Positions 4,439 to 21,302 of a DNA stretch of 64,000 bases are shown here, piece by piece (positions within the stretch are counted from its first letter, which is position 1; each line of letters begins with the position of its first letter). The position numbers and the translations under genes are program-made. The DNA is taken from contig JADGBZ010000007.1 in assembly GCA_015231175.1 (NCBI GenBank), positions 1,846 through 65,845 on the forward strand. The letters run 5' to 3'. The notes below the pieces were generated by a model that saw only the letters and a list, made by a program, of their open reading frames with translations, did not search any database and had not been told where the DNA came from. This DNA comes from Magnetococcales bacterium. GTDB taxonomy: Bacteria; Pseudomonadota; Magnetococcia; Magnetococcales; DC0425bin3.

Positions 4439-5563
4439 TCAGGTCGTTGGCGCGGTGGGGTCGGGTGCGGAGGGGGTCGAGGCCAGATATTCCAGAGTTT
4501 GACGCCATTGCCGATACTCTCCGTGAGCCAACAGGGCCGCCATGTCACCCGGCTCGACGCGGCCCGGGGCGAGGATGCGATCGATCCTTTGACTGATCTC
4601 CTCCCAGCCGGAAACCGCTTCCCTTTCCTGCAAAACACGTTCGATCCCGGCTGTCACCAGGGTGGCATCTTCCAGACGACCCGTGCAGCACAACACGAGG
4701 TCACACCCGGCTCGCAGGGACAACTCCGCACGCCTGTCCAACGATCCCGTCAAAGCGCCCATCTCCAGGGCGTCGGTGACCACCAGACCATGATAGCGCC
4801 ACTGCCGGCGCAATAAATCCCGCAACAAGGGTGCAGACCAGGTGGCGGGTTGCTCCGGGTCGACTCCCGTGGCCACCAGATGGGCGGTCATGATCAGGGG
4901 CAGTTGCGCCAGCAGCGCTTGAAAGGGGCGGAGTTCCCATCGTTCCAGGAGATCTCGCTCCTTGACAACGCAGGGCAGCGACTTGTGAGAATCGGCTCGG
5001 GCGGCGCCATGCCCGGGGAAATGTTTGCCCACGGCCAGACCGCCGGCTGCCGTAAAGCCCTTGAGCCAGGCCCCGGCGAGACGTACAACTTGCTGGGGAT
5101 CCCAGCCAAAGGCGCGTTCGGCAATCACCGGGTTGGCTTGTGCTTCGCGAATATCCAAGACTGGAGCGCAATTGATGCCGATACCCAGGGTGATCATTTC
5201 CCGACCGCTCAACCAGCCAGCCTGGCGGGACAACAGCTCCGCCTGAACTGGATCCGATTGTTCCAATTCGGCAAAACGACCAGGGCTCGGATAGGGCGTC
5301 AACGGGCGCCTTATCCTCTGGACTCGTCCTCCCTCCTGATCCAACCAAAGGGTTGGTGGTGGTGTAGCCGTTTTGCGGATGGCGCGAATAAGGTTTTGGA
5401 TCTGGAGAATGTCAACCAGGTTGCGGGCAAATAAAATCACCCCGGACGGGCGGACTGTACGAAGGAACTTTTCCTCTTCCGCATTCAGCTCTGGACCGGA
5501 AAGGCTGGTGATGAGAAATTTTCCAGGATGGAGGATGCCGCCTGATGGAAATGTCATGGTCAT
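4439..5563 (-). CDS. nagZ: beta-N-acetylhexosaminidase (GH3, peptidoglycan recycling)
   Basis: 374 aa. GH3 motifs WLDQEGGRVQR, GINCAPVLD, KHFPGHG, VVTDALEMGAL. Start overlaps the stop of the upstream oxidoreductase gene (5560-5563). Confidence 0.85.
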   Translation of the reverse strand: MTMTFPSGGILHPGKFLITSLSGPELNAEEEKFLRTVRPSGVILFARNLVDILQIQNLIRAIRKTATPPPTLWLDQEGGRVQRIRRPLTPYPSPGRFAELEQSDPVQAELLSRQAGWLSGREMITLGIGINCAPVLDIREAQANPVIAERAFGWDPQQVVRLAGAWLKGFTAAGGLAVGKHFPGHGAARADSHKSLPCVVKERDLLERWELRPFQALLAQLPLIMTAHLVATGVDPEQPATWSAPLLRDLLRRQWRYHGLVVTDALEMGALTGSLDRRAELSLRAGCDLVLCCTGRLEDATLVTAGIERVLQEREAVSGWEEISQRIDRILAPGRVEPGDMAALLAHGEYRQWRQTLEYLASTPSAPDPTAPTT

Positions 5564-7641
5564 TGCGTCAAGATGTCAGAGAGTGAGTGCTTTTTGCCTC
5601 CCCGATCCAGGGCGCGCACCTCCACACGGTTGTCATGAAAAGCCGCACCGCCATCCGGGGCGACGCGATCACCATGGGTGAGCACATTCAGAGAGATGCC
5701 TTCCGGGAATTCCGTTCCATGATAGTTCGATTCGCACAGGCAGAGACCGGGACGGACATCGGTGGTGACTTTGGCGGTCATCGTCAATCCGCCAAGGTCA
5801 TTGAAGACGGAGATCGGGGCGCCATCCTTGATGGAACGTGGTGTGGCGTCGTCAGGATGAATCCAAAGGAGCGGATGACCGCGCCGCCGTCGCGCTCCTT
5901 CGGCTACGGTGAAAGTGGTGTTGAGGACATCGTGTGCCGGTGGTGTCATAAAGTCCAGCGGATAACGTTCGGCCTGATGGGTGCGATCCCGGCTGTTGAC
6001 GGGCCAGTGGTCCGGGAAGAGGGGCATGGCAGGATCCCGCCACCCTGGGCGAAAATGAAAGCGTTGGTCGGGTTGGGCAAAGCCGTTTCGGAAATGGGCA
6101 GCGTCGGGATCCGGGGTAAAATCCAGCCAGGTTTTCACTCCCCAGGTAGCGACGGGCGGAAGTTTCGACTCTTTCAGGAGGGTATCCACGGTTTCGGCAA
6201 CGGATTGGGTAAAAGGTTGCTCCTGATAGCCGAGACGGATGGCCAGGGCATTGACCAGATCATGGTTGCACCAGGCCTCCTTGAAGGGGGGAAGTATGGG
6301 TTTGGCGTGTTGCAGGGTACATTGCCCATAGGATTTATAGAGATCCGCGTGTTCGAGAAAGGTGGTGGCGGGGAGCACGACATCGGCCCAGAGAGCGGTA
6401 TCGCTCATGACCTGTTCATGGACGACCGTGAAGAGATTTTCCCGGGCCAATCCGGCACGGACACGACGCAAATCCGGGCAGGAGGATGCCGGGTTGGCAT
6501 TGGCGACGATCAGCACCGCAACGGGCGGGGCCAAAGTGGCGTCGGTGAGAACGGCGCCCAGGCGGCTCATGTCCAGGAGGCGGGCAGGCGTATCACCCAT
6601 CCAGGCGGTTTGGCGGACGGGTTCGTCATGGATGCGCAGGGATTCGCCGGTGCTGAGCAGAATGCCTCCGCCAGGATGTGCCCAGGCGCCGGTGATGGCG
6701 GGCAGACAGGTGATGGCATGGACGTTGACGGCTCCATTGTTGTGGCGGGTCATGCCGTATCCCAGGCGTATGAAGGGGGCTTTGGCGCGACCAAAACGGC
6801 GGGCAAAAGAGCGGATCTCTTCGGGAGAGAGGCCGGTTATGGGGGCAGCCCACTTCGGTGTGCGGCTGAGAAAGTGGGCGCGCAGTTCATCATCGAAGTC
6901 CGTGAATGTGGCGAGATAGTCCGGGTTGCCGTACCCCTCGTTGAGAAGAACATGGATCATGGCCAGGGCCAGGGCGGCGTCGGTTCCCGGACGTGGGGCG
7001 ATGTGGAGATCGGCAAGACGTGCGGTGCGGTTGCGGTAGGGGTCGACGACGGCAAGAGTCGCCCCTTTTTGGCGGGCCTCCTTGATGAAGGGCATCAGGT
7101 TGATATGGGTAGATACGGCATTGATGCCCCAAAGAATGATGAGATCACTCGCTGCCATTTCATGGGGGTCCGGGCCGATACTTTTGCCGATGCCGGCCAT
7201 CCATCCTGCCTGTCCAATGGAGGAGCAAATATTTTTTTCCAGCCGGGACCAACCGGCCCGATGGGTCAGCCGATCCCAGGCTGGTCTTTGCACCAGGCCC
7301 ATGGTGCCGCCATAATAATAGGGAAAGACGCTTTCCGGTCCATATTGGGTCGTTGCCTGCCGCAGTTTTTGCACCACGAGATCCAGGGCCTCATCCCATG
7401 TGGCTTTGCGGAACTGGCCAGCTCCTTTGACACCGGTGCGGATCATGGGGTGGCCAATACGGGGGCCCTCCTGGATTTCCCGGTAGCGGCTGACCTTGCC
7501 GCAGATCACGCCTCGGGTGAATGGGTGGTCCGGGTTGCCACGAATCGACAGCAGGCGCCCTTTGGCGTCGATTTGGACGCGCAGGGCGCAGGCGCCAGGG
7601 CAATCGAGGGGACACGTGCTGGAATGTTTGGTCGAGGGCAT
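5560..7641 (-). CDS. molybdopterin (bis-MGD) oxidoreductase family protein
   Basis: ORF track 5560..7881 trimmed to ATG 7641 (MPSTKHSSTCPLDCPGACAL..., 693 aa). N-terminal Cys cluster C-x3-C-x3-C. MopB-like core (ATWDEALD, ILWGINA, ATLAVVDPY) and a C-terminal molybdopterin dinucleotide-binding-type region. Confidence 0.8.
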   Translation of the reverse strand: MPSTKHSSTCPLDCPGACALRVQIDAKGRLLSIRGNPDHPFTRGVICGKVSRYREIQEGPRIGHPMIRTGVKGAGQFRKATWDEALDLVVQKLRQATTQYGPESVFPYYYGGTMGLVQRPAWDRLTHRAGWSRLEKNICSSIGQAGWMAGIGKSIGPDPHEMAASDLIILWGINAVSTHINLMPFIKEARQKGATLAVVDPYRNRTARLADLHIAPRPGTDAALALAMIHVLLNEGYGNPDYLATFTDFDDELRAHFLSRTPKWAAPITGLSPEEIRSFARRFGRAKAPFIRLGYGMTRHNNGAVNVHAITCLPAITGAWAHPGGGILLSTGESLRIHDEPVRQTAWMGDTPARLLDMSRLGAVLTDATLAPPVAVLIVANANPASSCPDLRRVRAGLARENLFTVVHEQVMSDTALWADVVLPATTFLEHADLYKSYGQCTLQHAKPILPPFKEAWCNHDLVNALAIRLGYQEQPFTQSVAETVDTLLKESKLPPVATWGVKTWLDFTPDPDAAHFRNGFAQPDQRFHFRPGWRDPAMPLFPDHWPVNSRDRTHQAERYPLDFMTPPAHDVLNTTFTVAEGARRRRGHPLLWIHPDDATPRSIKDGAPISVFNDLGGLTMTAKVTTDVRPGLCLCESNYHGTEFPEGISLNVLTHGDRVAPDGGAAFHDNRVEVRALDRGGKKHSLSDILTQ

Positions 7642-7690
7642 GACATTTTCTCTCTCAGGGTCGATGCTTTCCGGGGCAGGCTGACAGCAT

Positions 7691-8317
7691 ATGAAAAAAT
7701 CCGACGTGATGGCAGTTTTTTCCGCATTTCGGGATGCCAATCCTGAACCGCGTGGGGATTTGCTCTTTCGCAACCCCTTTGAACTCCTGGTTGCCGTGGT
7801 GCTGTCCGCCCAGGCGACCGATCGGGTGGTAAACCAGGTGACGCCGGCCCTTTTTGCGGCGGCGCCCGATCCGCACGCCATGGTGGTTTTGGGGGAGGAG
7901 GGGATTCGGTCTTACATTCACACGGTCGGTTTGTACAACACCAAGGCGAGACATATCCACCTCCTGAGTGGAGAGTTGTTGCGCAGGCATGGGGGAGAGG
8001 TTCCGGACCGGCGTGAAGCCTTGGAGGCCTTGCCGGGGGTGGGACGCAAATCGGCCAATGTCGTGCTCAACGTCGTTTTTGGACAGCCGACCCTGGCGGT
8101 GGATACGCACGTTTTTCGGGTGGCCAACCGGACAGGTCTGGCGGCAGGCAAGACGCCGTTGCAGGTGGAAGAGTTGTTGCTCGCCAGGGTTCCGCCGCCA
8201 TTTTTGTTGCATGCGCACCATTGGTTGATTTTGCATGGCCGGCATGTTTGTCAGGCGCGGCGGCCACGTTGTGAGGGGTGTCTGATTCGGCGTTGGTGCG
8301 CGCTGGGGAAGGAGTGA
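7691..8317 (+). CDS. nth: endonuclease III
   Basis: 208 aa. FELLVAVVLSAQATD, HhH-GPD motif LPGVGRKSANVVL, and C-terminal Fe-S cluster C-x6-C-x2-C-x5-C (CQARRPRCEGCLIRRWC). Confidence 0.95.
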   Translation: MKKSDVMAVFSAFRDANPEPRGDLLFRNPFELLVAVVLSAQATDRVVNQVTPALFAAAPDPHAMVVLGEEGIRSYIHTVGLYNTKARHIHLLSGELLRRHGGEVPDRREALEALPGVGRKSANVVLNVVFGQPTLAVDTHVFRVANRTGLAAGKTPLQVEELLLARVPPPFLLHAHHWLILHGRHVCQARRPRCEGCLIRRWCALGKE

Positions 8318-8445
8318 TCATGGCGGAGCGGGTAGACGATCCATTTCAATAAAAACATCCTTGGATATTTTTTGAAGGGGTGATCGTTGCGGAGCAGGTA
8401 GGAGATCTATTTTTATAAAAACATCCTTAGACATTTTTTTGGTTG
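8314..8445. repeat. 66-bp tandem duplication (2 units, about 80% identical) starting at the nth stop codon
   Basis: 8314-8379 and 8380-8445 align without gaps (15 mismatches by eye). Each unit carries an AT-rich hairpin plus T-run (AAAAACATCC-TT-GGATATTTTTT). Confidence 0.85.
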
Positions 8446-8539
8446 TTGAAAGCAGCAACCGGAACGGGATCACTCCGTTCCTCATCTGGTACCGGGTCAT
8501 GTCGACCCGGTCCGAACCATTCAAATGGGAGAAAAAAAC

Positions 8540-9310
8540 ATGAAAAGTCGTTATCCTGGTTATGGCGCATCCGGTATGGAGCCGGAACAAACTGTGGACG
8601 ATCAGACCAAAACCATGGTAGAAGGTGCGTTGGGAAGGATTGCCAATGAGACAACGGATTATCATCGCTACCTCGCGGCGGAGGTGGCGTCCAGGAGATT
8701 GCGCCAACAGACCGGGTGGAGGGTCAGCCCGGAATTGCTGGTGGCCCACGCTTTTGGTGAACAACAGCATATTGACCAGCTCCAGGAAGATTTGTACGCT
8801 GCCGAACAAAATGGGGAGTGGCGAAGATATGACCGGTTGCAGGACAGAAGGCGGGATGATTCTGTCATCAATCAGAATCTTGGGGGAACCACCCGCGAGG
8901 TGTTCGGGGCAGATCCGGATTTTGTTCGGTCTGACCAGCAGTCAGGTGGGGATGCAGCCGAGGGCAACGGTGAGAAGCCCATGGTTATGGCATGGGGTTG
9001 GTTGCCAAGAGTTATCGGTGCCGCTGCTGCCGGGGCGGCCTGGTACCTGAGAAAGACCCCGAATCATGCCATTGAAGGGGAAGCGTTGAAAGCCGGGAAA
9101 GGTCTTTACGAGGAACTGGAAGATGTCAAGAAAAATCAAGATGATGACGATAGTCTTTTTCTTGGCATGCTGAAAGGACGCCATCCTGGGGATAAGGATG
9201 TTCAGAAGGGGGCTGCCGCCCAACAGGAGCTCGTCGACTGTCATAAAAAAAATCATGGTTCTGATGTCGAGGAATGTCTGAGAACAAGTAAGATATGGAA
9301 CGGAAATTGA
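8540..9310 (+). CDS. hypothetical protein (acidic, one predicted TM helix)
   Basis: ORF track 8525..9310. ATG 8540 has GGGAGA 6 nt upstream. One hydrophobic segment (MVMAWGWLPRVIGAAAAGAAWYL). No recognisable domain. Confidence 0.5.
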   Translation: MKSRYPGYGASGMEPEQTVDDQTKTMVEGALGRIANETTDYHRYLAAEVASRRLRQQTGWRVSPELLVAHAFGEQQHIDQLQEDLYAAEQNGEWRRYDRLQDRRRDDSVINQNLGGTTREVFGADPDFVRSDQQSGGDAAEGNGEKPMVMAWGWLPRVIGAAAAGAAWYLRKTPNHAIEGEALKAGKGLYEELEDVKKNQDDDDSLFLGMLKGRHPGDKDVQKGAAAQQELVDCHKKNHGSDVEECLRTSKIWNGN

Positions 9311-9379
9311 GTGTGTGTTTCAGGTTAACAGAGATGTTTCCTGGATACTTGTGATAATCAGAGGTTTATCCTAAAATTA

Positions 9380-9406
9380 CCCAGGAAGGGCGCAACCCTT
9401 CCTGGG
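9380..9406 (+). terminator. stem-loop (11-bp stem, 5-nt loop) downstream of the hypothetical gene
   Basis: CCCAGGAAGGG-CGCAA-CCCTTCCTGGG, 70 nt after the stop at 9310. No U-tract follows. Confidence 0.4.
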
Positions 9407-9456
9407 CATTCCATCCTTGACTTGCGCTTCTTTTGTCCGAGAGGTGGCTGTTGTTC

Positions 9457-11103
9457 ATGTGTCGAACATTGATGAAAATAATCACAGGATTCATGGTTTT
9501 ATTCATGATGGTGGCGCCTGCCCTGGTTCAGGGACAAGAGCCTGATTCGGTTTATCTGAGAGGAAAGCATGTTCCTTTTGATCAGGCTTTGTTACAGGCG
9601 CATAGAGGAGATGCGGAAGCAAAATACAGTGTAGGTTGGTTTTATATAGATAAAAACGATAAAAAAAATGGTATATATTGGATCAGAAGTGCCGCCATGG
9701 CTGGTTATGTACCTGCCATGGAGGATCTGCCATTTCAGTTGTTGCATTCGATTTATCCCCGCCACGATACTCTTGTGGAGGTTGAATCTGTTGGATGGGC
9801 TCTGAAATCACTTAAGATTAACCCGGATTGCTGGGGTGCCATGGTGGTTATGGCTGGCTATTACCGTTTGGGGTGGGGATTTTCCAGCAACATCAAATTG
9901 GCGAAAGAGTGGGAAGATAAAGCGATACGACTGGGGGGTGCGAAAGCTGCCATTCATTTGGCGTTTTTTAATTGGCCAAAAAATGAGGTGGTATATGATC
10001 CCCATAGGACATTATATTTTCTGAAAAAAGCGTCGGAAGATAACGATTCGTTAGCTCAGGCGCTTCTTGGCCAGTATTATGCGGGCTCTGATTTATTTAA
10101 ATTTAATCCCATTCCACTCAATCCTGACCAATCCCGTTATTGGTTGGAAAAGGCGTTTCAAGCGGGTGAAGGAGGGGGAGCGTTTTGGTTGGGTAAGCTC
10201 TATTATCATGGGAGCGGGGGGTATCCCCGGGATCTGGTCGAGGCCAAGTCCTGGTTTGAGCGTATACCCCGTCTTTATGCAAGAGCAAAATTTCTCTTGG
10301 CAACGCTCTACTGGTCTGGCGTTCCCGGCGCCCCTCCCGATCAGGCAAAAGCCATGGCTTTGTTCCAGCAGGCGGCGGAAGAGAAGAGTGCGCGCGCTCA
10401 GTTTGCCATGGGGCAACTGCATCGTGGGGGATATCTGGGCGGCAAGCCTGATATGACCCAGGCTTATCTCTGGTATCGCAAGGCTGCCAGGAACGCATAT
10501 CCACCAGCAATGACCATGCAGGGTCTCATGAGCCTGAAGGGTGATGGTATTCTGGCCGATCCAAAAGGGGCTGTGTCGCTTTTGCAGGCAGCCGCTGCCG
10601 AAGGAGAGGAAAATGCCCTGTATTGGCTTGGCGTCATGTCCCAGGTTGGCTTGGGTGTTGACAAGAGTTTGTCCCGGGCGCGCACCTGGTTTTTGCGTGG
10701 CGCCGAGGCTGGGGAGGCGCGATCCATGGTCAAACTATCCCTCGACCTGTTTGCGGGCAAAGGGGGGGCGCAGGAGCTTCCTCTTGCCTACCATTGGGCC
10801 AAAAAGGCGGCGCAGAGTGGTTTGCCTCAGGGGCTCTGCTGGGCGGGAACCTTGTTGTATTTTGGTGTTGGCACGCCGCCCGATCCGGAGCAGGCCAGGG
10901 TTTGGTTGCGGCAAGGTTCGGCTGCCGGCATGGAGCCGTGTACGCGCGTTTTGACGGCAGCCTCCCCCAAAACGCCAGGAGACACCGGTATTCGGCCACC
11001 CCTGGTGGAGGCCGTGGCTGCGGATTTATCTAAGGCCATGGATGGGGAGATGGATCACCCCTATCTCCCCATATCGTCCCATTTGGAGGTGTTGCCAAAA
11101 TGA
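9457..11103 (+). CDS. secreted Sel1-like repeat (SLR/TPR-like) protein, paralogue 1
   Basis: ORF track 9433..11103 trimmed to ATG 9457 (GAGGTGG upstream), 548 aa. Signal peptide MKIITGFMVLFMMVAPALVQG. Multiple Sel1 units (A-x-W-x-x-KAA-x-x-G pattern, e.g. AYLWYRKAARNAYPPAM, ARTWFLRGAEAGEARSM). Confidence 0.85.
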   Translation: MCRTLMKIITGFMVLFMMVAPALVQGQEPDSVYLRGKHVPFDQALLQAHRGDAEAKYSVGWFYIDKNDKKNGIYWIRSAAMAGYVPAMEDLPFQLLHSIYPRHDTLVEVESVGWALKSLKINPDCWGAMVVMAGYYRLGWGFSSNIKLAKEWEDKAIRLGGAKAAIHLAFFNWPKNEVVYDPHRTLYFLKKASEDNDSLAQALLGQYYAGSDLFKFNPIPLNPDQSRYWLEKAFQAGEGGGAFWLGKLYYHGSGGYPRDLVEAKSWFERIPRLYARAKFLLATLYWSGVPGAPPDQAKAMALFQQAAEEKSARAQFAMGQLHRGGYLGGKPDMTQAYLWYRKAARNAYPPAMTMQGLMSLKGDGILADPKGAVSLLQAAAAEGEENALYWLGVMSQVGLGVDKSLSRARTWFLRGAEAGEARSMVKLSLDLFAGKGGAQELPLAYHWAKKAAQSGLPQGLCWAGTLLYFGVGTPPDPEQARVWLRQGSAAGMEPCTRVLTAASPKTPGDTGIRPPLVEAVAADLSKAMDGEMDHPYLPISSHLEVLPK

Positions 11104-11124
11104 CCCGAAAGGATGCAAACTTCG
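10107..11124 (+). repeat. 1018-bp segmental duplication, copy 1 (3' two-thirds of SLR gene 1 plus 21 nt past the stop)
   Basis: Aligns without gaps to 11791-12808 (offset 1684 nt). I count 3 mismatches by eye (10266, 11031, 11072). Confidence 0.9.
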
Positions 11125-11140
11125 AGGTGGGCTGTTGTTT

Positions 11141-12787
11141 ATGTATCGAACATTGATGAAAGTAATCACAGGATTTATGGTTTTGTTTATGATGGTGGCG
11201 CCCGCCTTGGTCCAGGGGAGAGAACCTGATTTTGTCATTCTTGGCGAGAAACATGTTCCTTTTGATCAGGCTTTATTGTTGGCGCACGGGGGAGATGTGG
11301 AGGCCCAATATCGTATTAGTCTTCTATATTCTACAAATAAAAACAATAACAAAATAAGTTTATATTGGATGAGAAGGGCTGCTATGGCTGGATATGTGCC
11401 TGCTATGGAATATCTTGTGTTTTATTTGTTCAGCACGATCTATCCCAATCATGATTTTCTCTTGGAGGTGGAGGTTATAGGTTGGGCACAGAAAACCCTG
11501 GCCGTGAAAGCGGATAGTTGGGAGATCATGATGGACATGGCAGTCTTTCATCATCATGGATGGGGTGTGTCAAGAAACGAAAGGTTGGCCAAAATGTGGG
11601 AAGAGTCGGCGTTACGGGTTGGCGGTGCTCAAGCTGCGTTCTTTCTGTCAACCTCCCATGCCCGGGATGGTGTCCTGGATCACGATCCTGATAAACTTCT
11701 GCATTTACTGACCTATGCGGCAGAAGGTAATTACCTTGTTGCACAGGTGTTTCTCGGAAAATATTTTGCAGGGAAGTTATTCAAGAAGGATCCCATTCCA
11801 CTCAATCCTGACCAATCCCGTTATTGGTTGGAAAAGGCGTTTCAAGCGGGTGAAGGAGGGGGAGCGTTTTGGTTGGGTAAGCTCTATTATCATGGGAGCG
11901 GGGGGTATCCCCGGGATCTGGTCGAGGCCAAGTCCTGGTTTGAGCGTATGCCCCGTCTTTATGCAAGAGCAAAATTTCTCTTGGCAACGCTCTACTGGTC
12001 TGGCGTTCCCGGCGCCCCTCCCGATCAGGCAAAAGCCATGGCTTTGTTCCAGCAGGCGGCGGAAGAGAAGAGTGCGCGCGCTCAGTTTGCCATGGGGCAA
12101 CTGCATCGTGGGGGATATCTGGGCGGCAAGCCTGATATGACCCAGGCTTATCTCTGGTATCGCAAGGCTGCCAGGAACGCATATCCACCAGCAATGACCA
12201 TGCAGGGTCTCATGAGCCTGAAGGGTGATGGTATTCTGGCCGATCCAAAAGGGGCTGTGTCGCTTTTGCAGGCAGCCGCTGCCGAAGGAGAGGAAAATGC
12301 CCTGTATTGGCTTGGCGTCATGTCCCAGGTTGGCTTGGGTGTTGACAAGAGTTTGTCCCGGGCGCGCACCTGGTTTTTGCGTGGCGCCGAGGCTGGGGAG
12401 GCGCGATCCATGGTCAAACTATCCCTCGACCTGTTTGCGGGCAAAGGGGGGGCGCAGGAGCTTCCTCTTGCCTACCATTGGGCCAAAAAGGCGGCGCAGA
12501 GTGGTTTGCCTCAGGGGCTCTGCTGGGCGGGAACCTTGTTGTATTTTGGTGTTGGCACGCCGCCCGATCCGGAGCAGGCCAGGGTTTGGTTGCGGCAAGG
12601 TTCGGCTGCCGGCATGGAGCCGTGTACGCGCGTTTTGACGGCAGCCTCCCCCAAAACGCCAGGAGACACCGGTATTCGGCCACCCCTGGTGGAGGCCGTG
12701 GCTGCGGATTTATCCAAGGCCATGGATGGGGAGATGGATCACCCCTATCTCCCCACATCGTCCCATTTGGAGGTGTTGCCAAAATGA
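11141..12787 (+). CDS. secreted Sel1-like repeat (SLR/TPR-like) protein, paralogue 2
   Basis: ORF track 11042..12787 trimmed to ATG 11141 (GAGGTGG upstream), also 548 aa. Signal peptide MKVITGFMVLFMMVAPALVQG. C-terminal 331 aa differ from paralogue 1 at 2 residues. Confidence 0.85.
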   Translation: MYRTLMKVITGFMVLFMMVAPALVQGREPDFVILGEKHVPFDQALLLAHGGDVEAQYRISLLYSTNKNNNKISLYWMRRAAMAGYVPAMEYLVFYLFSTIYPNHDFLLEVEVIGWAQKTLAVKADSWEIMMDMAVFHHHGWGVSRNERLAKMWEESALRVGGAQAAFFLSTSHARDGVLDHDPDKLLHLLTYAAEGNYLVAQVFLGKYFAGKLFKKDPIPLNPDQSRYWLEKAFQAGEGGGAFWLGKLYYHGSGGYPRDLVEAKSWFERMPRLYARAKFLLATLYWSGVPGAPPDQAKAMALFQQAAEEKSARAQFAMGQLHRGGYLGGKPDMTQAYLWYRKAARNAYPPAMTMQGLMSLKGDGILADPKGAVSLLQAAAAEGEENALYWLGVMSQVGLGVDKSLSRARTWFLRGAEAGEARSMVKLSLDLFAGKGGAQELPLAYHWAKKAAQSGLPQGLCWAGTLLYFGVGTPPDPEQARVWLRQGSAAGMEPCTRVLTAASPKTPGDTGIRPPLVEAVAADLSKAMDGEMDHPYLPTSSHLEVLPK

Positions 12788-12808
12788 CCCGAAAGGATGC
12801 AAACTTCG
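11791..12808 (+). repeat. 1018-bp segmental duplication, copy 2
   Basis: See copy 1 (10107-11124). Confidence 0.9.
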
Positions 12809-12887
12809 GTGATGAATGGTTACATCAAAATGGCCATGCAGGTCAAAGGCGGGCACCACCAGACAACCTGCCTGGCCCGGGAAAACG

Positions 12888-13871
12888 TCACTTTACCATG
12901 CGCAACCGCTCCAACAGGCGTTGCAGGCCCGCATCCAGGGGGGCTTCCACTGTGATGGGTTGGCCGGTGCGAGGATGGGTCAGGGAGATGCGGGAAGAGT
13001 GCAAAAACATGCGCTTCAACCCTGTCGAGCGCATGTGCCGGTTGAACTCCCGCTCGCCATACTTGGGATCTCCGGCGATGGGATGGCCCAGCAACTGGAA
13101 ATGGACACGCAACTGATGAGTCCGTCCGGTATTGGGCTTGGCTTCTACCAGGGAGGCCACACCATAATTGGCCAATGTACGGTACCAGGTATGAGCCGGT
13201 TTGCCGTCGGCGCCTCCGGCCACCATCCGCTCTCCCGAACGCACCATGCCCCGTACCAGGGGAATGGCAATTTCTCCCTCGCGGGGTGAGGGGGTTCCCC
13301 GTACCAGCAGCAGATAGCGTTTATCCACCTCGCCATCGCGAAAAACCCGGGCCATCTCCCGCACTGTGCAGGCATCCAGGCCAAAGACCAGGCACCCTGA
13401 TGTGTCCTTGTCGAGACGATGGCAAAGCTCTGGCATGACATCGTGGCGCATCTCCATCATGCGCCGCACCCCATCCACCAGACCATATGGTTGTCCACTT
13501 CCCCCATGGACGGGAATTCCCTCCGGCTTGTCCAGCACCAGCAAATGGTCGTCCCGATAACAAATGCGTTCCGCCAGGGTGGCCGACCAGCCATCGCCAG
13601 GTTTGCTGCGTTCGCCAACCCCTTCTGGATCATCGACCGCAGCTCGCACCGGCGGAATACGAATTTTTTGCCCCAGGAGCAACCGTTCACCCCCCTTGGC
13701 CCGTTTCCCGTCGACACGCACCTGGCCTGTTCGCAACAGGCGCTGCCAGGCCGACATGGGTAACGCCGGAACTTCCCTTTGCAGGAGTCGATCCAACCGC
13801 ATGCCCACATCGTCCGCCCCCACCACCCGGTGGCGAACCGGGAAACGTATCAGGCCATCGAGATCAGTCAA
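12888..13871 (-). CDS. rluC: 23S rRNA pseudouridine synthase, RluA family (RluC-like)
   Basis: 327 aa. N-terminal S4-like region, catalytic motif HRLDKDTSGCLVF. Divergent from rne, as in E. coli. Confidence 0.8.
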   Translation of the reverse strand: MTDLDGLIRFPVRHRVVGADDVGMRLDRLLQREVPALPMSAWQRLLRTGQVRVDGKRAKGGERLLLGQKIRIPPVRAAVDDPEGVGERSKPGDGWSATLAERICYRDDHLLVLDKPEGIPVHGGSGQPYGLVDGVRRMMEMRHDVMPELCHRLDKDTSGCLVFGLDACTVREMARVFRDGEVDKRYLLLVRGTPSPREGEIAIPLVRGMVRSGERMVAGGADGKPAHTWYRTLANYGVASLVEAKPNTGRTHQLRVHFQLLGHPIAGDPKYGEREFNRHMRSTGLKRMFLHSSRISLTHPRTGQPITVEAPLDAGLQRLLERLRMVK

Positions 13872-14102
13872 ATTTGCTTCCTTGGCAAAAAGGTCGTAAG
13901 ATGGGCGCCGTCGTGAGAAGTGACCGGGGGACCGGTGGTCTCTGGGACCGAAGGCGCCGGGCGTTTGAAATTTTGTCGGACATTTTTTTAGTCATGGGAA
14001 TCAATAACATGCATTTTTGTCTCACCGTCCTGGAGAACCCATGGTATCTCAAGTGGGCGGCGGAGACGCCAAGCAGATTGCACTCGGGAGCAGAATACTT
14101 CA
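13872..14102 (+). promoter_or_regulatory. divergent rluC/rne promoter region and probable rne 5' leader
   Basis: 231-nt non-coding spacer upstream of rne. In enterobacteria rne carries a long autoregulatory 5' UTR. No specific motif verified here. Confidence 0.3.
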
Positions 14103-16475
14103 ATGAACAAGCGCATGCTGGTGGATGCAACCCACCCGGAAGAGATCCGTGTGGGCATCGTCCAGGATCAGCGACTCATCGACCTGGATATCGAAACCTC
14201 AACCAAGGAACAAATCAAGGGGAACATCTACCTGGGGCGGGTGACCCGTGTGGAACCCGCCCTCCAGGCCGCCTTTGTCGATTTCAACGGCGGACGTCAG
14301 GGATTTCTCTCCGTCAACGACATTCATCCGAAATATTATCCGCCTCCGGAAGGCAAGGAAAAATCGAACAAGGAAAAGGAAATCGATCCGGCGGAGTCCG
14401 CCGAAGAGGGTGACGAGCCCGAAAATGGTGAAGAGACCGACGAAGATGTGCCCGTTCGTGTACGACGGGCTGCCAATCGTCGCCGTATCCTGCCTATCCA
14501 AAAAATTCTCACCCGAGGTCAATCCCTGTTGCTTCAGGTGGTCAAGGAGGCGCGTGGCAACAAAGGTGCCTCCCTCACGACCAATCTCTCTCTTGCCGGT
14601 CGTTACACGGTCCTGTTGCCGGACAACTCCGGGGGAGGTGGGGGCATCTCCCGCAAGATTGTCGACCCGCAGGAGAGGAAACACCTCAAGGAGTTGATGG
14701 GCAGCCTGGAAATTCCCTCCGATGTCAGCCTGATCATCCGTACAGCGGGATTGGGTCGCACCAAACGGGAAATCACCCGGGACATGAATTATCTGCTCCG
14801 GCTCTGGAAACGCATCCAGGAGAAATCCGCCCAAACCAAACCCCCCTGCGTCATCCACGAGGAGGGGGATCTGATTCTACGCACCATCCGTGATCTCTAT
14901 ACCACCGACATGACCGAAATTTTGATCCACGGTCAGGAGGCCTATCGTCGCGGCAAAGACTTCATGCGTCTGCTCATGCCCCGCTATGTCAAGGTGGTGC
15001 AACCCTATCGGGAAAATAAGCCCATTTTTGCCCAATTCCAGGTGGAAAATCAGATCGAGATGATGCACGAGCGCGTCATCCCCCTGAAGGCCGGAGGCTA
15101 CCTGGTCATCGAATCGACCGAAGCCCTGGTCTCCATCGACATCAACTCTGGGCGGGCCACCCGCGAAAAGGATGTTGAGTCGACCGCCTTCAAAACCAAT
15201 CTTCAAGCCGCCGATGAAATTGCCCGCCAGCTTCGTCTGCGCGACCTGGGTGGATTGATCGTCATCGATTTCATTGATATGGAGGATAAAAAGCACAACA
15301 CGGAGGTCGAGAAGCGCATCAAGGATGCCTTCAAACTGGATCGGGCCAAAAGCCAGATCGGGCGGATTTCCCAGTTCGGTTTGCTGGAACTCTCCCGCCA
15401 GCGCTTGAAACCGGCCTTCAGTGAATCAAACCGGACTCCGTGTCCACGTTGCCAGGGTTTGGGCACCATCCGTTCCGTCGAATCCATGGCCATCCATGTG
15501 ATGCGCATGATCGTGGAAGAGGCTGCCACCAACCGCTACGCCAAGCTGACCTATAACGTCCCTCCGGATGTTGCCAACTATCTGTTCAACCACAAACGGG
15601 CCCAGATCACCTCCCTGGAAGAGGCCCACCATCTCGCCATTGTCATCCTTTCAGATCAGAATCTGCAAACCCCCAATTTTCGCCGGGAAGTGGTCGAACG
15701 CCAAGGGGGAGAACTTGATAACCTGCCACCGTCTGTAAAGGAAAAGGATGTCAAACCGGATGACGAGGACGACATCCTCCAGGATGACGATGACGATGAC
15801 GATGACGATTTCGACGATGACGACGATGATGATGAAAGGCCTGAAGGTCGCCATACCCAACGTGGTGGTGCCAGCGCCGCTGAAACCGATCCGGGCGAAT
15901 CACGACCAGAGGAAGCCACACTCTCCGGGTCCAGGCAGGGGGAAAAGAATGGTGACAGAAAAAAACGTCGCCGTCGCAGGCGCCGCAAGACCTCCCCTGT
16001 AATGCACGATCCCTCTTCCTCCGCTTCGACCTCCGATGTGGTGGAGGGTTCCTCGCTGGCAAACGCGCCCCCCCCCGAGGGCGCGGAAGAGATGGGTGTT
16101 CCAGGTCTCTACCGTTTGACCCAGGAGGGTGCTGCAACAAAGCCCAATGACATCTCCCAGGATTCTCCGACCGACGATGGTGTCTCCTCCGCACCACAGA
16201 AACCACGGCGCCGCCGGCGCCGGCGTCGTTCCCCTCCACGCAGTCTCGGAGAGAAACTGTTTCCGCCACGCCACGGGGCGGATGAGACCCCAGACGATGA
16301 TGTTATCGATGACCGTGACGGCGATCATGATCATCAGAGCCGGATGTCCGAACCGCCTGAGCTGCGCCCGAACAGTATGGATGCAGAGCCAAACCCAGCC
16401 TCTGACTCGGCATCTGCGCGTATGAACCAGGAAGATGCGCCCCCCTCGTCCTCTCCCAGTCAGGAGAATAAGTGA
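14103..16475 (+). CDS. rne: ribonuclease E
   Basis: 790 aa. N-terminal catalytic half typical of RNase E/G (MLVDATHPEEIRVGIV, GNIYLGRVTRVEPALQAAFVDFNGGRQGFLS, IVIDFIDM). C-terminal low-complexity scaffold with Asp-rich and Arg-rich tracts. Confidence 0.95.
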   Translation: MNKRMLVDATHPEEIRVGIVQDQRLIDLDIETSTKEQIKGNIYLGRVTRVEPALQAAFVDFNGGRQGFLSVNDIHPKYYPPPEGKEKSNKEKEIDPAESAEEGDEPENGEETDEDVPVRVRRAANRRRILPIQKILTRGQSLLLQVVKEARGNKGASLTTNLSLAGRYTVLLPDNSGGGGGISRKIVDPQERKHLKELMGSLEIPSDVSLIIRTAGLGRTKREITRDMNYLLRLWKRIQEKSAQTKPPCVIHEEGDLILRTIRDLYTTDMTEILIHGQEAYRRGKDFMRLLMPRYVKVVQPYRENKPIFAQFQVENQIEMMHERVIPLKAGGYLVIESTEALVSIDINSGRATREKDVESTAFKTNLQAADEIARQLRLRDLGGLIVIDFIDMEDKKHNTEVEKRIKDAFKLDRAKSQIGRISQFGLLELSRQRLKPAFSESNRTPCPRCQGLGTIRSVESMAIHVMRMIVEEAATNRYAKLTYNVPPDVANYLFNHKRAQITSLEEAHHLAIVILSDQNLQTPNFRREVVERQGGELDNLPPSVKEKDVKPDDEDDILQDDDDDDDDDFDDDDDDDERPEGRHTQRGGASAAETDPGESRPEEATLSGSRQGEKNGDRKKRRRRRRRKTSPVMHDPSSSASTSDVVEGSSLANAPPPEGAEEMGVPGLYRLTQEGAATKPNDISQDSPTDDGVSSAPQKPRRRRRRRRSPPRSLGEKLFPPRHGADETPDDDVIDDRDGDHDHQSRMSEPPELRPNSMDAEPNPASDSASARMNQEDAPPSSSPSQENK

Positions 16476-16516
16476 ACCCAATTCGTCACTATTCAGTACC
16501 CTTTTAAGAAAAGCCT

Positions 16517-16604
16517 GGATATGAAAGTTTTTGTCAGGGCTTTGCCCCGAACCGTGCCAGGACTCCGTCCTGGATCTGTCCGGTCGCCAACCCCCTGGAT
16601 CCCG
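16517..16604 (-). repeat. REP-like ~90-bp element, copy 2 (inverted, diverged core)
   Basis: The reverse complement shares both termini with copies 1 and 3. The core differs but still forms a hairpin (CCAGGA-CGGAG-TCCTGG). Lies between the rne stop and the cheC-like start. Confidence 0.65.
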
Positions 16605-16732
16605 ATTCGTTACCGGGTGGTGAATGGTGACCCAAATTCTGACAACGGACGGCCATGGTTCGTGGGCAGGGTGTGTCTGTTGTGGCCCGGCCCCATGGGT
16701 CGTGCTGGGCCGTCTGCACAGTACGGGGTGTT

Positions 16733-17392
16733 ATGACCATGGAATTGACCGAGTTGGAACAAGATGCCCTGAAAGAGTTTTTGAACATCGGGCTCGGTAT
16801 GGCAGCCGACTCCCTGAGCCAAATGGTTCATAACGAGATCCTCCTCTCCCTGCCGCAGCTGTCCGTGGTCTCCAAGGAGAGTGCCATCCAGCTGATTGAA
16901 CATCGCAGGGGGGATCGCCTGGTCGCTATTCGACAAAGTTTTTACGGGGAGTTGTCCGGTACGGCACTGCTGGTCTTTCCGGGAGCAAGAAGTCTGGAGT
17001 TGGTTCGTACCCTCCTGGGTGAAAATACTCCGTTGGAGTCCTTGACCGTTTTGGAACAGGAAACGCTCCTCGATATTGGCAATGTGATTCTTAACTCATT
17101 TTTGTCCAGCTTTACCCAAATGATCAATCTGGATTTTGAATTTGATCCTGCTGAACTGATCCATGCCGAGTGTGATGCTCTTCTCGATCTTTCGACGCAC
17201 AAAACGGTTTCTGGTGAGGTGAGAGGGAAGGATATCCAGGATGAACAGGTCTTTTTCTTGATGATGGATTTTAAAACTCATGAGGAGGAGGCAGTTAAAA
17301 ATTCCCTGCATGGCTATATTGCCATGCTTTTTACACAAAAAGATATGGAGAGATTAAAAAAAGAGTTGGAGAGGATCCTTTCTCAATATTGA
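16733..17392 (+). CDS. CheC-like CheY-P phosphatase family protein
   Basis: ORF track 16655..17392 trimmed to ATG 16733 (219 aa). First CheC active-site motif is intact (DALKEFLN followed by 22 residues then P). The second is degenerate (ETLLDIGN, x21, P). Confidence 0.75.
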   Translation: MTMELTELEQDALKEFLNIGLGMAADSLSQMVHNEILLSLPQLSVVSKESAIQLIEHRRGDRLVAIRQSFYGELSGTALLVFPGARSLELVRTLLGENTPLESLTVLEQETLLDIGNVILNSFLSSFTQMINLDFEFDPAELIHAECDALLDLSTHKTVSGEVRGKDIQDEQVFFLMMDFKTHEEEAVKNSLHGYIAMLFTQKDMERLKKELERILSQY

Positions 17393-17440
17393 TCTTCCGT
17401 GAATTTTGAACGCATGTGCTGACAACACAAGAACTGTGCC

Positions 17441-20302
17441 ATGGATACTGACCTGGATCTTGATATTTTTCGGCAAATTCTTGAAAAGAGCTCCTATGGT
17501 ATCATTGTTCTTGATCAGGTCTCCAAAGTTGTATTCTGGAATCGCTGGATGGAAAAAGCGTCACGCATTCCCGCCGCTGGTGTTGTCGGGCAGGTATTTA
17601 CAGACGTTTTTCCAGATTTGCTCGGTACCCGTATTGCGCGTGGCATTGAAAACGCCCTCTCCCAGGGATTGCCCACCACCCTCTCCCACAAGTTGACCCA
17701 TCGGCCCTTTCCTCTCTTTCCTCCTGCTGCCGGGCGGGAAGCGGACGAACGCATGAGCCAACACGTTCTGATCAGTGGCATACGCGCCCGGGACCGGACT
17801 TTTTATTGTACCATCCAGATCCAGGACATTACCGACACCGTCTCCCGTGAACACATATTGCGTGAACAGACCGGGGAGTTGCGTTTGGCCAAGGAGATGG
17901 CACAGAGTGCCAGCCAAGCAAAGGGGGACTTTCTGGCCAATATGAGTCATGAGATTCGCACCCCGATGAACGCCATCATTGGCATGACGCACCTGGCCAT
18001 GCAAACCGATCTGAATCCCAGGCAACTCGATTACCTGACCAAGATTCAATACTCCTCCCAGTCCCTGCTTGGCATCATCAACGATATTCTCGATTTTTCC
18101 AAAATCGAGGCGGGCAAACTGAAGATGGAGTCCGTCGCTTTCCACCTGGATGAGGTTTTGCACAACGTCTCCAACCTGATGACGATCAAAACCGATGAAC
18201 AGGGGCTGGAATTTTGTTTCCACGTTGCCAAGGATCTTCCTCTGGGTCTGGTGGGCGATCCGCTGCGCCTGGGGCAGGTTTTGGTCAATTTGACCAGCAA
18301 TGCCGTCAAGTTTACCCGTGCGGGAGAGATCATTCTGTCCGTCGAATTGGAGGCGTTGACCGAGGAGACGGTGACGATTCATTTCAGTGTCAAGGACAGC
18401 GGCATTGGCATGACTCCAGAACAGATCGCCGGGTTGTTCCGACCCTTTACCCAGGCTGACAGCTCAACGACCCGAAAATTTGGCGGTACGGGTCTTGGTC
18501 TTTCCATCTGCCGGCGCTTGGTTCAGATGATGGGAGGAAACATCTGGGTCGAGAGTCAATCTGGGCTTGGCAGCACCTTCCATTTCAACGCAACGTTTGG
18601 ACGCGCCAACAAGGATCGCCGCCGGTTTCGTTTGCCCGACGATCGATATGTGGGTTTGCGCGTTTTATTGGCGGATGACAATGCTGCGTCGCGCGAAATT
18701 CTGCAACATGCCTTGGAGTCTTTTTCCTTCAAGGTTACCCCTGTGGCTTCTGGTGCCGAGGCCATTGCCGAGTTGGAAAAAGCCCGACATGCCCGGCCCT
18801 TTGACATGGTGTTCGTGGATTGGAAAATGCCGGAGATGGATGGCATTCGCACCACGGAGGAGATCTCCAGACTTTTTCCCACCCAACGCATGCCCAAGGT
18901 GATCATGGTGACCGCCTACGGTCGGGAGGAGGTGCTGCATGCTGCCAAAAGTGTCCATCTCAATTCAATTTTGATCAAACCCGTCAGCCTCTCCCTGTTG
19001 TTCGACACCATTCTGGCCGCTTTGGGGGAAAATGAGCGTGCCATCACCAACCCGCTCCAGACGAGCAGAAATGAGTTGGTACCCCTCCAGTTGTCACCCC
19101 TCCAGCAGAAGATGCACCCCTTGCAGGGCGCCAAAATATTGCTGGTTGAGGATAACGAGATCAATCAGCAGGTGGCGGGGGAACTTCTCGACATGGTGGG
19201 GTTGCAGGTGCGTATCGCCTCCAACGGGCGGCAAAGCCTCATCGCCCTGGCAGAGGAGTCGTTTGATGCCGTGCTGATGGATATTCAAATGCCGGAGATG
19301 GATGGTTATGAAGCCACCCGCAAAATTCGGGAAAATCCAGCCTGGACAACTCTGCCCATCATCGCCATGACGGCCAATGCCCTGGCCGGGGATCGGGAAA
19401 AATGCCTGGCCGTGGGTATGAATGAACATATCGCCAAACCCATTGATCCCCGTGTTCTTTACAGTACCCTTACCCGTTGGATCAAGCCTCCGTTGCCAAC
19501 CGTTGAGCAACCGGTGGTGGCGCAGGCGCCGCGACCTGAACGAACCCAACCGGAACCTGTTGATCACCTGGTATCGCAAGCGACTGAATATAAAGGCATG
19601 GAACCGGATGTCACCCTTCAAGCAACTGAATATAAAAATATGGAGCCGGATGTCACTCTTTTGCCGGAATCCATTCCCGGTTTTGATCTTTCTGTTGGGC
19701 TGAAATATGTGGGTGGCAACAAGAAACTTTACCGGAAACTATTGCTGGATTTTCGGCGCACCCAATGGGATGCAGCCGAGAAGGTTCATCAGGGCATGAC
19801 ATCGGGAGAGATCCATGAGACGCAGCGCCGGGTCCACACCATCAAAGGTATTGCCGGCACACTGGGGGCTTTGGAGTTGCAGGATGTGGCAAAACATTTG
19901 GAAGTTTCCCTGAAGAACCATGACCGCGAACAATCCGCATCCTTGCTCAAGCCTTTCCAAAGTTCCTTGCAAGGTGTCATGCACGCTCTTGCCGTTTTGG
20001 ACTCTCAGGAAACTCCCGTCGATCCGCCCCATGTTGTGAAAGGATCCAAGGAAGGCCATCATGATGGGCCTCTTGATCGAAATGCTTTGGAGTCTGTCAC
20101 AACCCTTTGTCAACAATTGGCCGCATGGCTCGATGAGGGTGACGTTCGCGCCAAAAGCACTCTGGAACAACTCAACAAATGCCTTCCCCCGGCCCATAGG
20201 CAGGTGGTCGGCCTGGTGGCTGAAAAAATGGGCGATTATGATTTTGACGGTGCCAGGGACGCCTTGGTGCAATGGGCCTCATTCATGAAAATATCCCTCT
20301 GA
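17441..20302 (+). CDS. hybrid sensor histidine kinase (PAS-HisKA-HATPase-REC-REC-HPt)
   Basis: 953 aa. H-box [15 protein letters not shown]. ATPase boxes DSGIGM and GGTGLGLSI. Two receivers ([21 protein letters not shown]). C-terminal HPt [11 protein letters not shown]. Confidence 0.9.
19577..19660 (+). repeat. in-frame 42-bp tandem duplication (2 x 14 aa) in the REC2-HPt linker of the hybrid kinase
   Basis: [14 protein letters not shown] / [14 protein letters not shown]. 6 nt differences, three of them synonymous. Confidence 0.85.
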
Positions 20303-20351
20303 ATTGGATGGAATTCATGCATGTTTCTTTTCAGAAGCAGGGGAACTGTCT

Positions 20352-21275
20352 ATGAGTGAAAAACCCGTCATTCTGGTCGTTGACGATGAGAGCTTCAATA
20401 TTGATGTGTTGTTGAACCTCCTGGGGCAGGAATATACGATAACAATTGCCAAGAATGGCGAACAGGCACTCAAGAGGCTGACAGGCAAAACCATGCCGGA
20501 CCTGGTTCTTCTTGATATCATGATGCCGGGCATGGATGGTTACGAGGTGTGCCGGTGCATCAAGGAGGGGTTTCGCACCCGGCATGTGCCGGTCATTTTC
20601 ATCACCGCCTTGAGTGATGTCAGCGAAGAGACCGCAGGGTTCCAGGCCGGGGCTGTGGACTATATTACCAAGCCGTTTTGTCCAGCCGTGGTGACGGCCC
20701 GGGTGCGTACACACATCGAGTTGAAACGAAGCCGCGATCTCCTGGAAATCCTGGCCAAGGAAGATGGTTTGACCGGTATTGCCAATCGCAGGCGGTTCAA
20801 TGAGTTTCTTGAATTTGAATGGAGCCGGGCACAACGTAAACAGACATCCATCTCCCTGACCCTGATGGATGTCGATTTTTTTAAATTGTTCAACGATCAT
20901 TATGGCCATGCTGTTGGGGATGCCTGCCTGCGGCAGGTGGGGCATGCCCTGCGGCGCTCCATGCATCGGACGGTGGACTTGGTGGCGCGTTATGGCGGAG
21001 AAGAGTTTTGCTGTGTTTTGCCCGATACGGAAAGTCCGGGCGCCATGGGCGTGGCCAATCGACTGTTATGTGCCGTTCACGAACTGGCCATCCCGCACCA
21101 TCACTCCAAGGTCGCTGACCACGTCACCATGAGTCTGGGCGTTGCTTCGCTCGTTCCAGCGGCAGGCCAAGGTTCGGAAATACTCATTCATATGGCCGAT
21201 CAGGCGCTTTACAAGGCGAAAAATGGGGGAAGAAACCGGGTTGAGCTGGCGCGAACGGAAGATGCAGCTGACTAG
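20352..21275 (+). CDS. response regulator-diguanylate cyclase (REC-GGDEF)
   Basis: ORF track 20304..21275 trimmed to ATG 20352 (MSEKPVILVVDDE, 307 aa). Receiver LLDIMMPGMDG. GGDEF domain with GGEEF and an RTVD I-site 5 residues upstream. Confidence 0.9.
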   Translation: MSEKPVILVVDDESFNIDVLLNLLGQEYTITIAKNGEQALKRLTGKTMPDLVLLDIMMPGMDGYEVCRCIKEGFRTRHVPVIFITALSDVSEETAGFQAGAVDYITKPFCPAVVTARVRTHIELKRSRDLLEILAKEDGLTGIANRRRFNEFLEFEWSRAQRKQTSISLTLMDVDFFKLFNDHYGHAVGDACLRQVGHALRRSMHRTVDLVARYGGEEFCCVLPDTESPGAMGVANRLLCAVHELAIPHHHSKVADHVTMSLGVASLVPAAGQGSEILIHMADQALYKAKNGGRNRVELARTEDAAD

Positions 21276-21302
21276 AATGGCAAGAAGAGGTGTGTTCTGT
21301 CC

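Follow-up and report, generated by a model that had tools for sequence, protein, structure and literature searches.

Two adjacent genes for Sel1-like repeat (SLR) proteins, referred to hereafter as A and B, were analysed in a stretch of 64,000 nucleotides (the window) from an uncultured Magnetococcales bacterium (assembly GCA_015231175.1, contig JADGBZ010000007.1). They were found to be mosaics, in which a 3' module that is nearly identical in the two copies is joined abruptly to a 5' module that has diverged almost to saturation at its synonymous sites. The pair probably descends from an ancient tandem duplication, the products of which have since undergone partial concerted evolution by interlocus gene conversion.

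Mosaic structure of the tandem genes

The two open reading frames (ORFs) lie side by side on the + strand, are read from the ATG codons at 9457 and 11141 and specify 548 amino acids each (gene A, 9457..11103; gene B, 11141..12787), with the motif GAGGTGG placed 9-10 nucleotides upstream of either start. They are head-to-tail copies of a 1684-nucleotide unit consisting of the ribosome-binding site (RBS), the SLR gene and 21 nucleotides of 3' flank. The limits of the two units (approximately 9441..11124 and 11125..12808, both on the + strand) were established by comparison of the copies at an offset of 1684 nucleotides and by reading of the junction between them. This junction reads AACTTCG followed by AGGTGG, with a microhomology of just 1-2 nucleotides, and both the tandem architecture and the junction are also present in a sister assembly, GCA_015232135.1 (L001).

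An ungapped comparison at the above offset matches 10106-11124 with 11790-12808, and over these 1019 nucleotides the copies differ at positions 10266, 11031 and 11072 only; the near-identical tract stops 21 nucleotides beyond each stop codon. To the left of 10106 the gapped nucleotide identity is 67.6%, and 64% for the mature N module taken alone. The maximum chi-square statistic, which places the break after 10105, is 368, the best of 2000 permutations reaching 23.5, and the longest identical run measures 764 nucleotides against a permutation maximum of 86. The stretch comprising the RBS and the signal peptide constitutes a third zone of intermediate similarity: nucleotide identity between A and B is 82-91% in the signal-peptide region and decays from 91 through 82 and 73 to 67% over successive windows of 15 codons.

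An earlier note on this DNA, made from the sequence alone, had described two adjacent genes of equal length with a sharp switch from strongly diverged and AT-rich first 650 nucleotides to a 3' tract differing at three positions. This description is borne out. Both ORFs are real, the three sites are the same and the tract is longer by one base than the 1018 nucleotides given there; the permutation statistics confirm the sharpness of the switch, and the 5' parts, with 51.6% amino acid identity in the N module, have a GC content of 0.44 as against 0.59 in the 3' module and 0.56 in the whole window.

Each gene can be divided into three parts, all on the + strand. A putative Sec signal peptide, read from the sequence (MCRTLMKIITGFMVLFMMVAPALVQG in A, 9457..9534; equivalent in B, 11141-11218), is followed by the N module (A, 9535..10105; B, 11219..11789), which in A comprises about five degenerate Sel1 repeats. 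The homogenised C module (A, 10106..11124; B, 11790..12808), delimited by the offset comparison and the breakpoint statistics, comprises eight Sel1 repeats, a C-terminal helix, the stop codon and the 21-nucleotide flank. The Pfam Sel1 family (PF08238; cut-off 30.7 bits) is matched by A with 135.6 bits (E=3e-40) and by B with 152.7 bits (E=1e-45). Eight matched stretches fall in the C module alone, and the N modules give weak or degenerate matches of 17.9 bits in A and 34.8 bits in B (E=2e-8).

The AlphaFold2 (AF2) models of the two proteins, with predicted local distance difference test (pLDDT) values of 87.6 for A and 87.9 for B, have a common fold and the same helix pattern. From the N-terminal end they consist of a low-confidence hydrophobic helix, presumed to be the signal peptide, a short beta hairpin, one continuous all-alpha solenoid of about 13 helix pairs, a linker and a C-terminal helix at residues 515-533. 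The breakpoint, at residue 217, falls in the loop 209-222 between two helix pairs of the model. The best matches in the PDB are SLR crystal structures (Foldseek E 1e-18 to 1e-9; phmmer E 6.5e-49 to 1e-12), the nearest being Oxalobacter formigenes 6OK3, Escherichia coli c5321 (4BWR), Legionella LceB and LpnE and Helicobacter pylori HcpC. These share the fold and the repeat family with A and B, but at 22-27% identity the fold is identified and no function carries over.

Divergence, selection and variation between assemblies

The family is very small, and its comparison was performed on five genes: A and B themselves, a gene each from Magnetococcus sp. DMHC-1 (L002) and assembly GCA_015228935.1 (L003), and one on a contig of 2,194 nucleotides binned with Magnetococcus sp. 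DMHC-1 (L008). The gene of L003 occurs also in assembly GCA_015229045.1 (L009), where it is cut by the contig end, and L001 carries the same gene pair as the window. The best database match, the NCBI product P0001 (468 amino acids), belongs to a metagenome-assembled genome (MAG) of a Magnetococcales bacterium and represents gene A with its 5' end cut off. When species-representative genomes and Joint Genome Institute (JGI) metagenomes were scanned with the family alignment, nothing but unrelated SLR proteins of 28-32% identity was obtained, and a search of 1.84 billion representative proteins with the N module of A returned only generic SLR matches of at most 42% identity. The search with the N module of B gave no matches but also missed the self-hits P0002 and P0213, and is hence uninformative.

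Synonymous and nonsynonymous divergences (dS and dN) were calculated on codon alignments by the Nei-Gojobori method. For A against B, the C module gives a dS of 0.004 and the mature N module one of 1.9; in the latter the proportion of differing synonymous sites (pS) is 0.69 and near saturation. The signal-peptide codons lie between these values, with a dS of about 0.65. The corresponding dN of the N module is 0.35, giving a dN/dS of 0.18. At the amino acid level, identity in the C module amounts to 99.1% for A and B and to 58-60% for either of them and the orthologues, whereas the N modules are 51.6% identical to each other, 48-50% (A) and 50-51% (B) to those of the orthologues. Thus, the paralogues are closer to each other than to the orthologues in the C module and not appreciably so in the N module (51.6% vs 48-51%), which is the comparison by which partial concerted evolution is recognised. 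Since the synonymous sites of the N modules are saturated, their divergence is old; it has been built up under purifying selection and not in a burst after a recent duplication. The two orthologues in DMHC-1 and L003 show 67.7% amino acid identity in the N half and 71.9% in the C half, with a dN/dS of 0.18 for both halves, and in the closer pair of L008 and L003 the N-module dN/dS is 0.20.

The sister assembly L001 aligns with positions 7873-22787 of the window without gaps, at 99.89% identity over 14,915 nucleotides. Fifteen of the 16 mismatches fall in the two C modules (2,036 nucleotides), none in the two N modules (1,298 nucleotides) and one in the remaining 11.6 kb or so. The binomial probability of this concentration in the C modules is 1.5e-12, or 2.5e-4 when clustered changes are counted as single events. 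It is therefore the supposedly constant C module, and not the N module, that varies between the strains, the opposite of what the earlier note had led one to expect.

The variation includes a patch at 10266..10286 of the + strand (equivalent in B, 11950-11970), identified from a four-way table of the copies and corresponding to residues 270-277, which form a surface loop in the AF2 model. Six substitutions within 15 nucleotides (10272-10286; in B, 11956-11970) separate the window, which encodes YARA, from L001, which encodes HGGK. The window carries one state in its two copies and L001 the other in its two, a distribution to which the resolution of repeats in MAGs could contribute. There are three haplotypes among the four copies at 10266-10286, and the C modules of L001 do not differ from each other at any position. 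A search of the window, L002 and L003 for a donor of the six substitutions yielded none; the patch could have arisen by micro-conversion from an unassembled copy or by multi-nucleotide mutation, or could be a population variant. Taken at face value, the pattern is one of concerted evolution in progress. Together with the contrast in dS and the sharp breakpoint, these strain-specific variants common to both copies support the recent gene conversion of a constant C-terminal module that had been suggested from the sequence.

A second lineage shows a comparable pattern. The overall identity of L008 and L003 is 91.5%, and their alignment is itself a mosaic, consisting of an N half at about 82-98% identity, some 350 nucleotides at 100%, a patch of about 200 nucleotides at 56-90% and finally 506 identical nucleotides. 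The blocks of L008 identical to L003 are 1139-1490 and 1689-2194, the latter running 27 nucleotides past the stop codon to the point where the L008 contig ends. The L009 contig (1-576) starts inside the gene, 64 nucleotides before the last block that is identical in L008 and L003. L008 may represent either another paralogue from a genome like that of L003 or the allele of a different strain; the pattern of the three contigs suggests a second copy left unresolved by assembly, or strain exchange, in that lineage. Under either reading of L008, block-wise homogenisation of the 3' part would appear to recur in the family and to disturb assembly.

The base composition of the modules was also compared across the family. 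The GC content at third codon positions (GC3) of the N module is 0.41-0.44 in every family member (0.41 in A and 0.44 in B), including the two single-copy orthologues. That of the C module is 0.53-0.55 in L002, L003 and L008 and 0.61-0.62 in the homogenised tandem copies, and the other long ORFs of the window (more than 300 amino acids) have GC3 values of 0.59-0.73, with the exception of a few antisense or overlapping frames. Since the low GC of the N modules is family-wide and extends to the single-copy orthologues, composition is no sign of foreign origin here, and the inference of such an origin from AT-richness is contradicted. Separate acquisition of the N modules, an alternative offered in the earlier note, is possible but not required.

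Origin of the mosaic

The history considered probable here would have begun with the tandem duplication, long ago, of the 1684-nucleotide unit, at a time about as remote as the separation from the line leading to Magnetococcus sp. DMHC-1 and L003. Since that time the 3' 1019 nucleotides would have been kept homogeneous by interlocus gene conversion of the RecA type or by unequal exchange between the neighbours, and the N module of about 570 nucleotides would have escaped homogenisation and drifted apart under ordinary purifying selection. The diverged N modules may then have acted as a self-reinforcing barrier to the extension of heteroduplexes, fixing the breakpoint at 10105/10106, and the short 5' stretch of RBS and signal peptide may have been converted less often, leaving the graded, intermediate similarity seen there. 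Conversion is unlikely to start between sequences with a dS of about 2, so the C modules would have been homogenised repeatedly from the beginning and not once, recently. The outcome would be two periplasmic SLR solenoids with one common C-terminal platform, possibly serving a common partner, and two different N-terminal surfaces.

Some considerations weigh against this history. Both genomes are MAGs, and when the path through an assembly graph passes a repeat two times, the two copies necessarily come out the same. The C modules could therefore in truth be further apart, and the concerted patch could in part be an effect of variant resolution; if the assemblies were made from short reads, like those of a candidate source study that used Illumina reads and metaSPAdes (Lin et al. 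2020), the identity may have been inflated by collapse of the repeat. The duplication is dated from distances only, among five family members with no outgroup, and much the same picture would result if a foreign allele had taken the place of one N module. The tandem arrangement and the sharp switch are very probably genuine; the C modules may have retained more differences than the assemblies show.

A replacement of this kind, in which a recent duplication of the whole unit was followed by recombination of one N module with a diverged Magnetococcales allele, the signal-peptide region and the C module providing the flanking homology, is possible though unlikely. It would account for the sharp 3' breakpoint and for the fact that the two N modules are equidistant from the known orthologues, so that neither is obviously native, and the mosaic of L008 and L003 indicates that segments of the family can be exchanged or homogenised between close sequences. 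However, the 5' boundary is graded and not sharp, and a donor with an N-module dS of about 1.9 would need near-identical flanks, whereas the C modules of the known relatives are only 58-60% identical. The low GC3 common to both N modules and the single-copy orthologues offers no compositional sign of a foreign segment, and no closer relative of the N module of A was found among the 1.84 billion representative proteins. An artefact of assembly, either in the sense that the C modules are really more different or in the sense that the tandem is a chimera of two strain alleles, is improbable, and such weight as it is given concerns inflated identity only. Besides the MAG origin of the genomes, it is favoured by the complete identity of the copies in L001 (100%), by the position of 15 of the 16 differences between the assemblies within the repeat and by the breaking of related MAG contigs in or beside the gene (L008 being 2.2 kb long and L009 starting inside it). 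Yet the junction between the 3' flank of A and the RBS of B is a unique sequence found in two separate assemblies, and with a bubble of two alleles the sequence in front of B would be the flank that precedes A instead of the tail of its C module. The window retains three differences between the copies, one of them 6 nucleotides from the patch, and so is not fully collapsed, and three haplotypes in four copies at 10266-10286 are impossible for one collapsed genome with two copies. Collapse would in any case require near-identity, and a jump in identity from about 68% to the high 90s or above would stand.

The interpretation preferred in the earlier note, in which rapid diversifying selection acted on the N modules after a recent duplication of full length, is very improbable. 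It would fit the observation that about half of the N-module residues differ and the C module is identical, but it is contradicted by the saturated synonymous sites (pS 0.69, dS 1.9), by a dN/dS of 0.18, as between orthologues, and of 0.20 in L008 and L003, and by the lack of any N-module difference between the window and L001, which are near-identical strains. In the orthologues the N halves are nearly as conserved as the C halves (67.7% vs 71.9% amino acid identity; dN/dS 0.18 for both), an outcome named beforehand as one that would speak against diversification. Neither a dN/dS above 1 nor an excess of variation between close strains in the variable module, by which a diversifying or contingency locus is recognised, was found. 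Uncultured Magnetococcales are known as free-living bacteria, and nothing was found for this organism that points to the role in host interaction or recognition suggested in the earlier note.

Returning to duplication with partial concerted evolution, the closest likeness is found in mammalian TLR1 and TLR6, which are also adjacent solenoid-repeat paralogues with diverged N-terminal parts and a reproducible boundary, and in which conversion keeps a C-terminal block of about 300 amino acids closer between paralogues than between orthologues (PMC2077338). Independent conversion was shown there in nine species, and the rationale proposed is that the homogenised part serves one partner common to both proteins, the remainder being directed at different ligands (Kruithof et al. 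2007, PMC2077338). By analogy with that proposal, A and B may likewise combine a common C-terminal platform with two different N-terminal surfaces. The TLR pair differs in that it comprises eukaryotic receptors with leucine-rich repeats (LRR) and a domain of the Toll/interleukin-1 receptor (TIR) type, studied in nine species, whereas A and B are bacterial SLR genes known from one lineage, together with the hint from L008 and L003.

Among bacterial paralogues, babA, babB and babC of H. pylori resemble A and B in having homologous 3' regions and distinct 5' or middle regions (PMC4552749). Intragenomic recombination of these genes yields chimeras, and conversion occurs in short 5' and long 3' segments (PMC4552749). 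In contrast to A and B, the bab genes are dispersed, encode outer-membrane adhesins of a pathogen, carry phase-variable CT repeats and form frequent chimeras between strains (PMC4552749); A and B are in tandem in an uncultured Magnetococcales bacterium, have no phase-variation repeats and carry N modules on which selection is purifying. Wang and Chen (2018, PMC6053082) describe concerted evolution that persists over long times in prokaryotic duplicates, where recurrent conversion makes paralogues within a genome closer than orthologues, and A and B appear similar in this respect. The cases are summarised there as key pathway genes encoding members of the same complexes or pathways (PMC6053082), whereas A and B encode a lineage-restricted SLR scaffold, two-thirds of which is homogenised.

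The phenomenon itself is thus well known, and A and B are a further case in the poorly sampled magnetotactic bacteria, indicating no new mechanism and no host-interaction system. Within the library searched, no paper has gene conversion in Sel1-repeat genes as its subject, the four that contain both terms dealing with other matters. The pair is of interest as a clean bacterial example of a gene of which one part evolves in concert and the rest diverges, by which repeat-scaffold proteins can hold one docking platform and vary another surface.

Putative export signal, gene calls and genomic context

The putative leader has n-, h- and c-regions and ends in the motif LVQG, which is kept in all five family members. 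The hydrophobic N-terminal helix and the motif are in frame in the five genes, and both products are predicted from these features to be exported and periplasmic; an export signal is usual among bacterial SLR proteins without being a defining trait. This region is absent from the NCBI gene calls: the public calls of every family member (P0001-P0004 and P0214) begin at an internal methionine and leave out 80-130 conserved codons including the putative signal peptide (9457-9696 and 11141-11404 in the window, 9776-10000 in L002 and 630-1010 in L003). The AT-rich 5' part probably misleads gene finders. An exact look-up of the 548-residue products of A and B gave no match, because the public annotation uses the internal starts. 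In practice, therefore, the NCBI calls for the family lose the first 80-130 codons with the putative export signal; in addition, related MAG assemblies break at the SLR gene, and long reads are needed before variants called in the homogenised module can be relied on.

The step in synonymous GC within the gene persists across lineages that are saturated at synonymous sites. A quite unlikely but conceivable explanation for the coincidence of this GC3 step with the recombination boundary is that it is a footprint of GC-biased gene conversion, a hypothesis put forward for bacteria by Lassalle et al. (2015, PMC4450053). On this view, the portion still recombining, within and between genomes, would be driven towards GC, and the portion too divergent to recombine would decay to an AT-biased mutational equilibrium. 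If true, the locus would be a natural within-gene experiment for that hypothesis (PMC4450053).

The gap between A and B measures 37 nucleotides, and only about 16 nucleotides upstream of the ATG are duplicated. A consensus scan for promoters and terminators returned nothing above shuffled expectation, with no site resembling an intrinsic terminator in the gap, which is weak evidence. These features suggest that B is probably co-transcribed with A, relying on read-through transcription from it, and that the pair probably forms a two-gene operon. No third copy is present in the 64-kb window. There are no inverted repeats in 8000-15000, and silent donor cassettes, phase-variable simple repeats and invertible segments were not found near the locus within the window; no Rfam match was found in 7500-14500.

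Upstream of A lies an orphan gene, U (8525..9310, + strand), which encodes 261 amino acids with one hydrophobic segment. It matches no Pfam family, and its only database match is its own annotated product, P0216, in the two sister assemblies. In L003 the SLR gene is immediately preceded by a U-like gene with 31% amino acid identity, and in L008 an incomplete gene lying upstream aligns with U at the DNA level; no U-like gene was found upstream of the DMHC-1 orthologue (L002). As a guess, the product of U may be a candidate for the common partner of the C modules.

Two further observations concern the region upstream of the pair. Two tandem units of 66 nucleotides, 83% identical to each other and each ending in ATAAAAACATCCTTRGAYATTTTTT, occupy 8308-8439, between the end of an endonuclease III gene (8317) and gene U; no more copies are present in the window, and the units have no Rfam match. 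At 5560-7881, a + strand ORF of 719 amino acids lies wholly antisense to an ORF of 773 amino acids resembling a molybdopterin oxidoreductase, and is most likely not a gene but a stop-poor shadow frame in GC-rich coding DNA.

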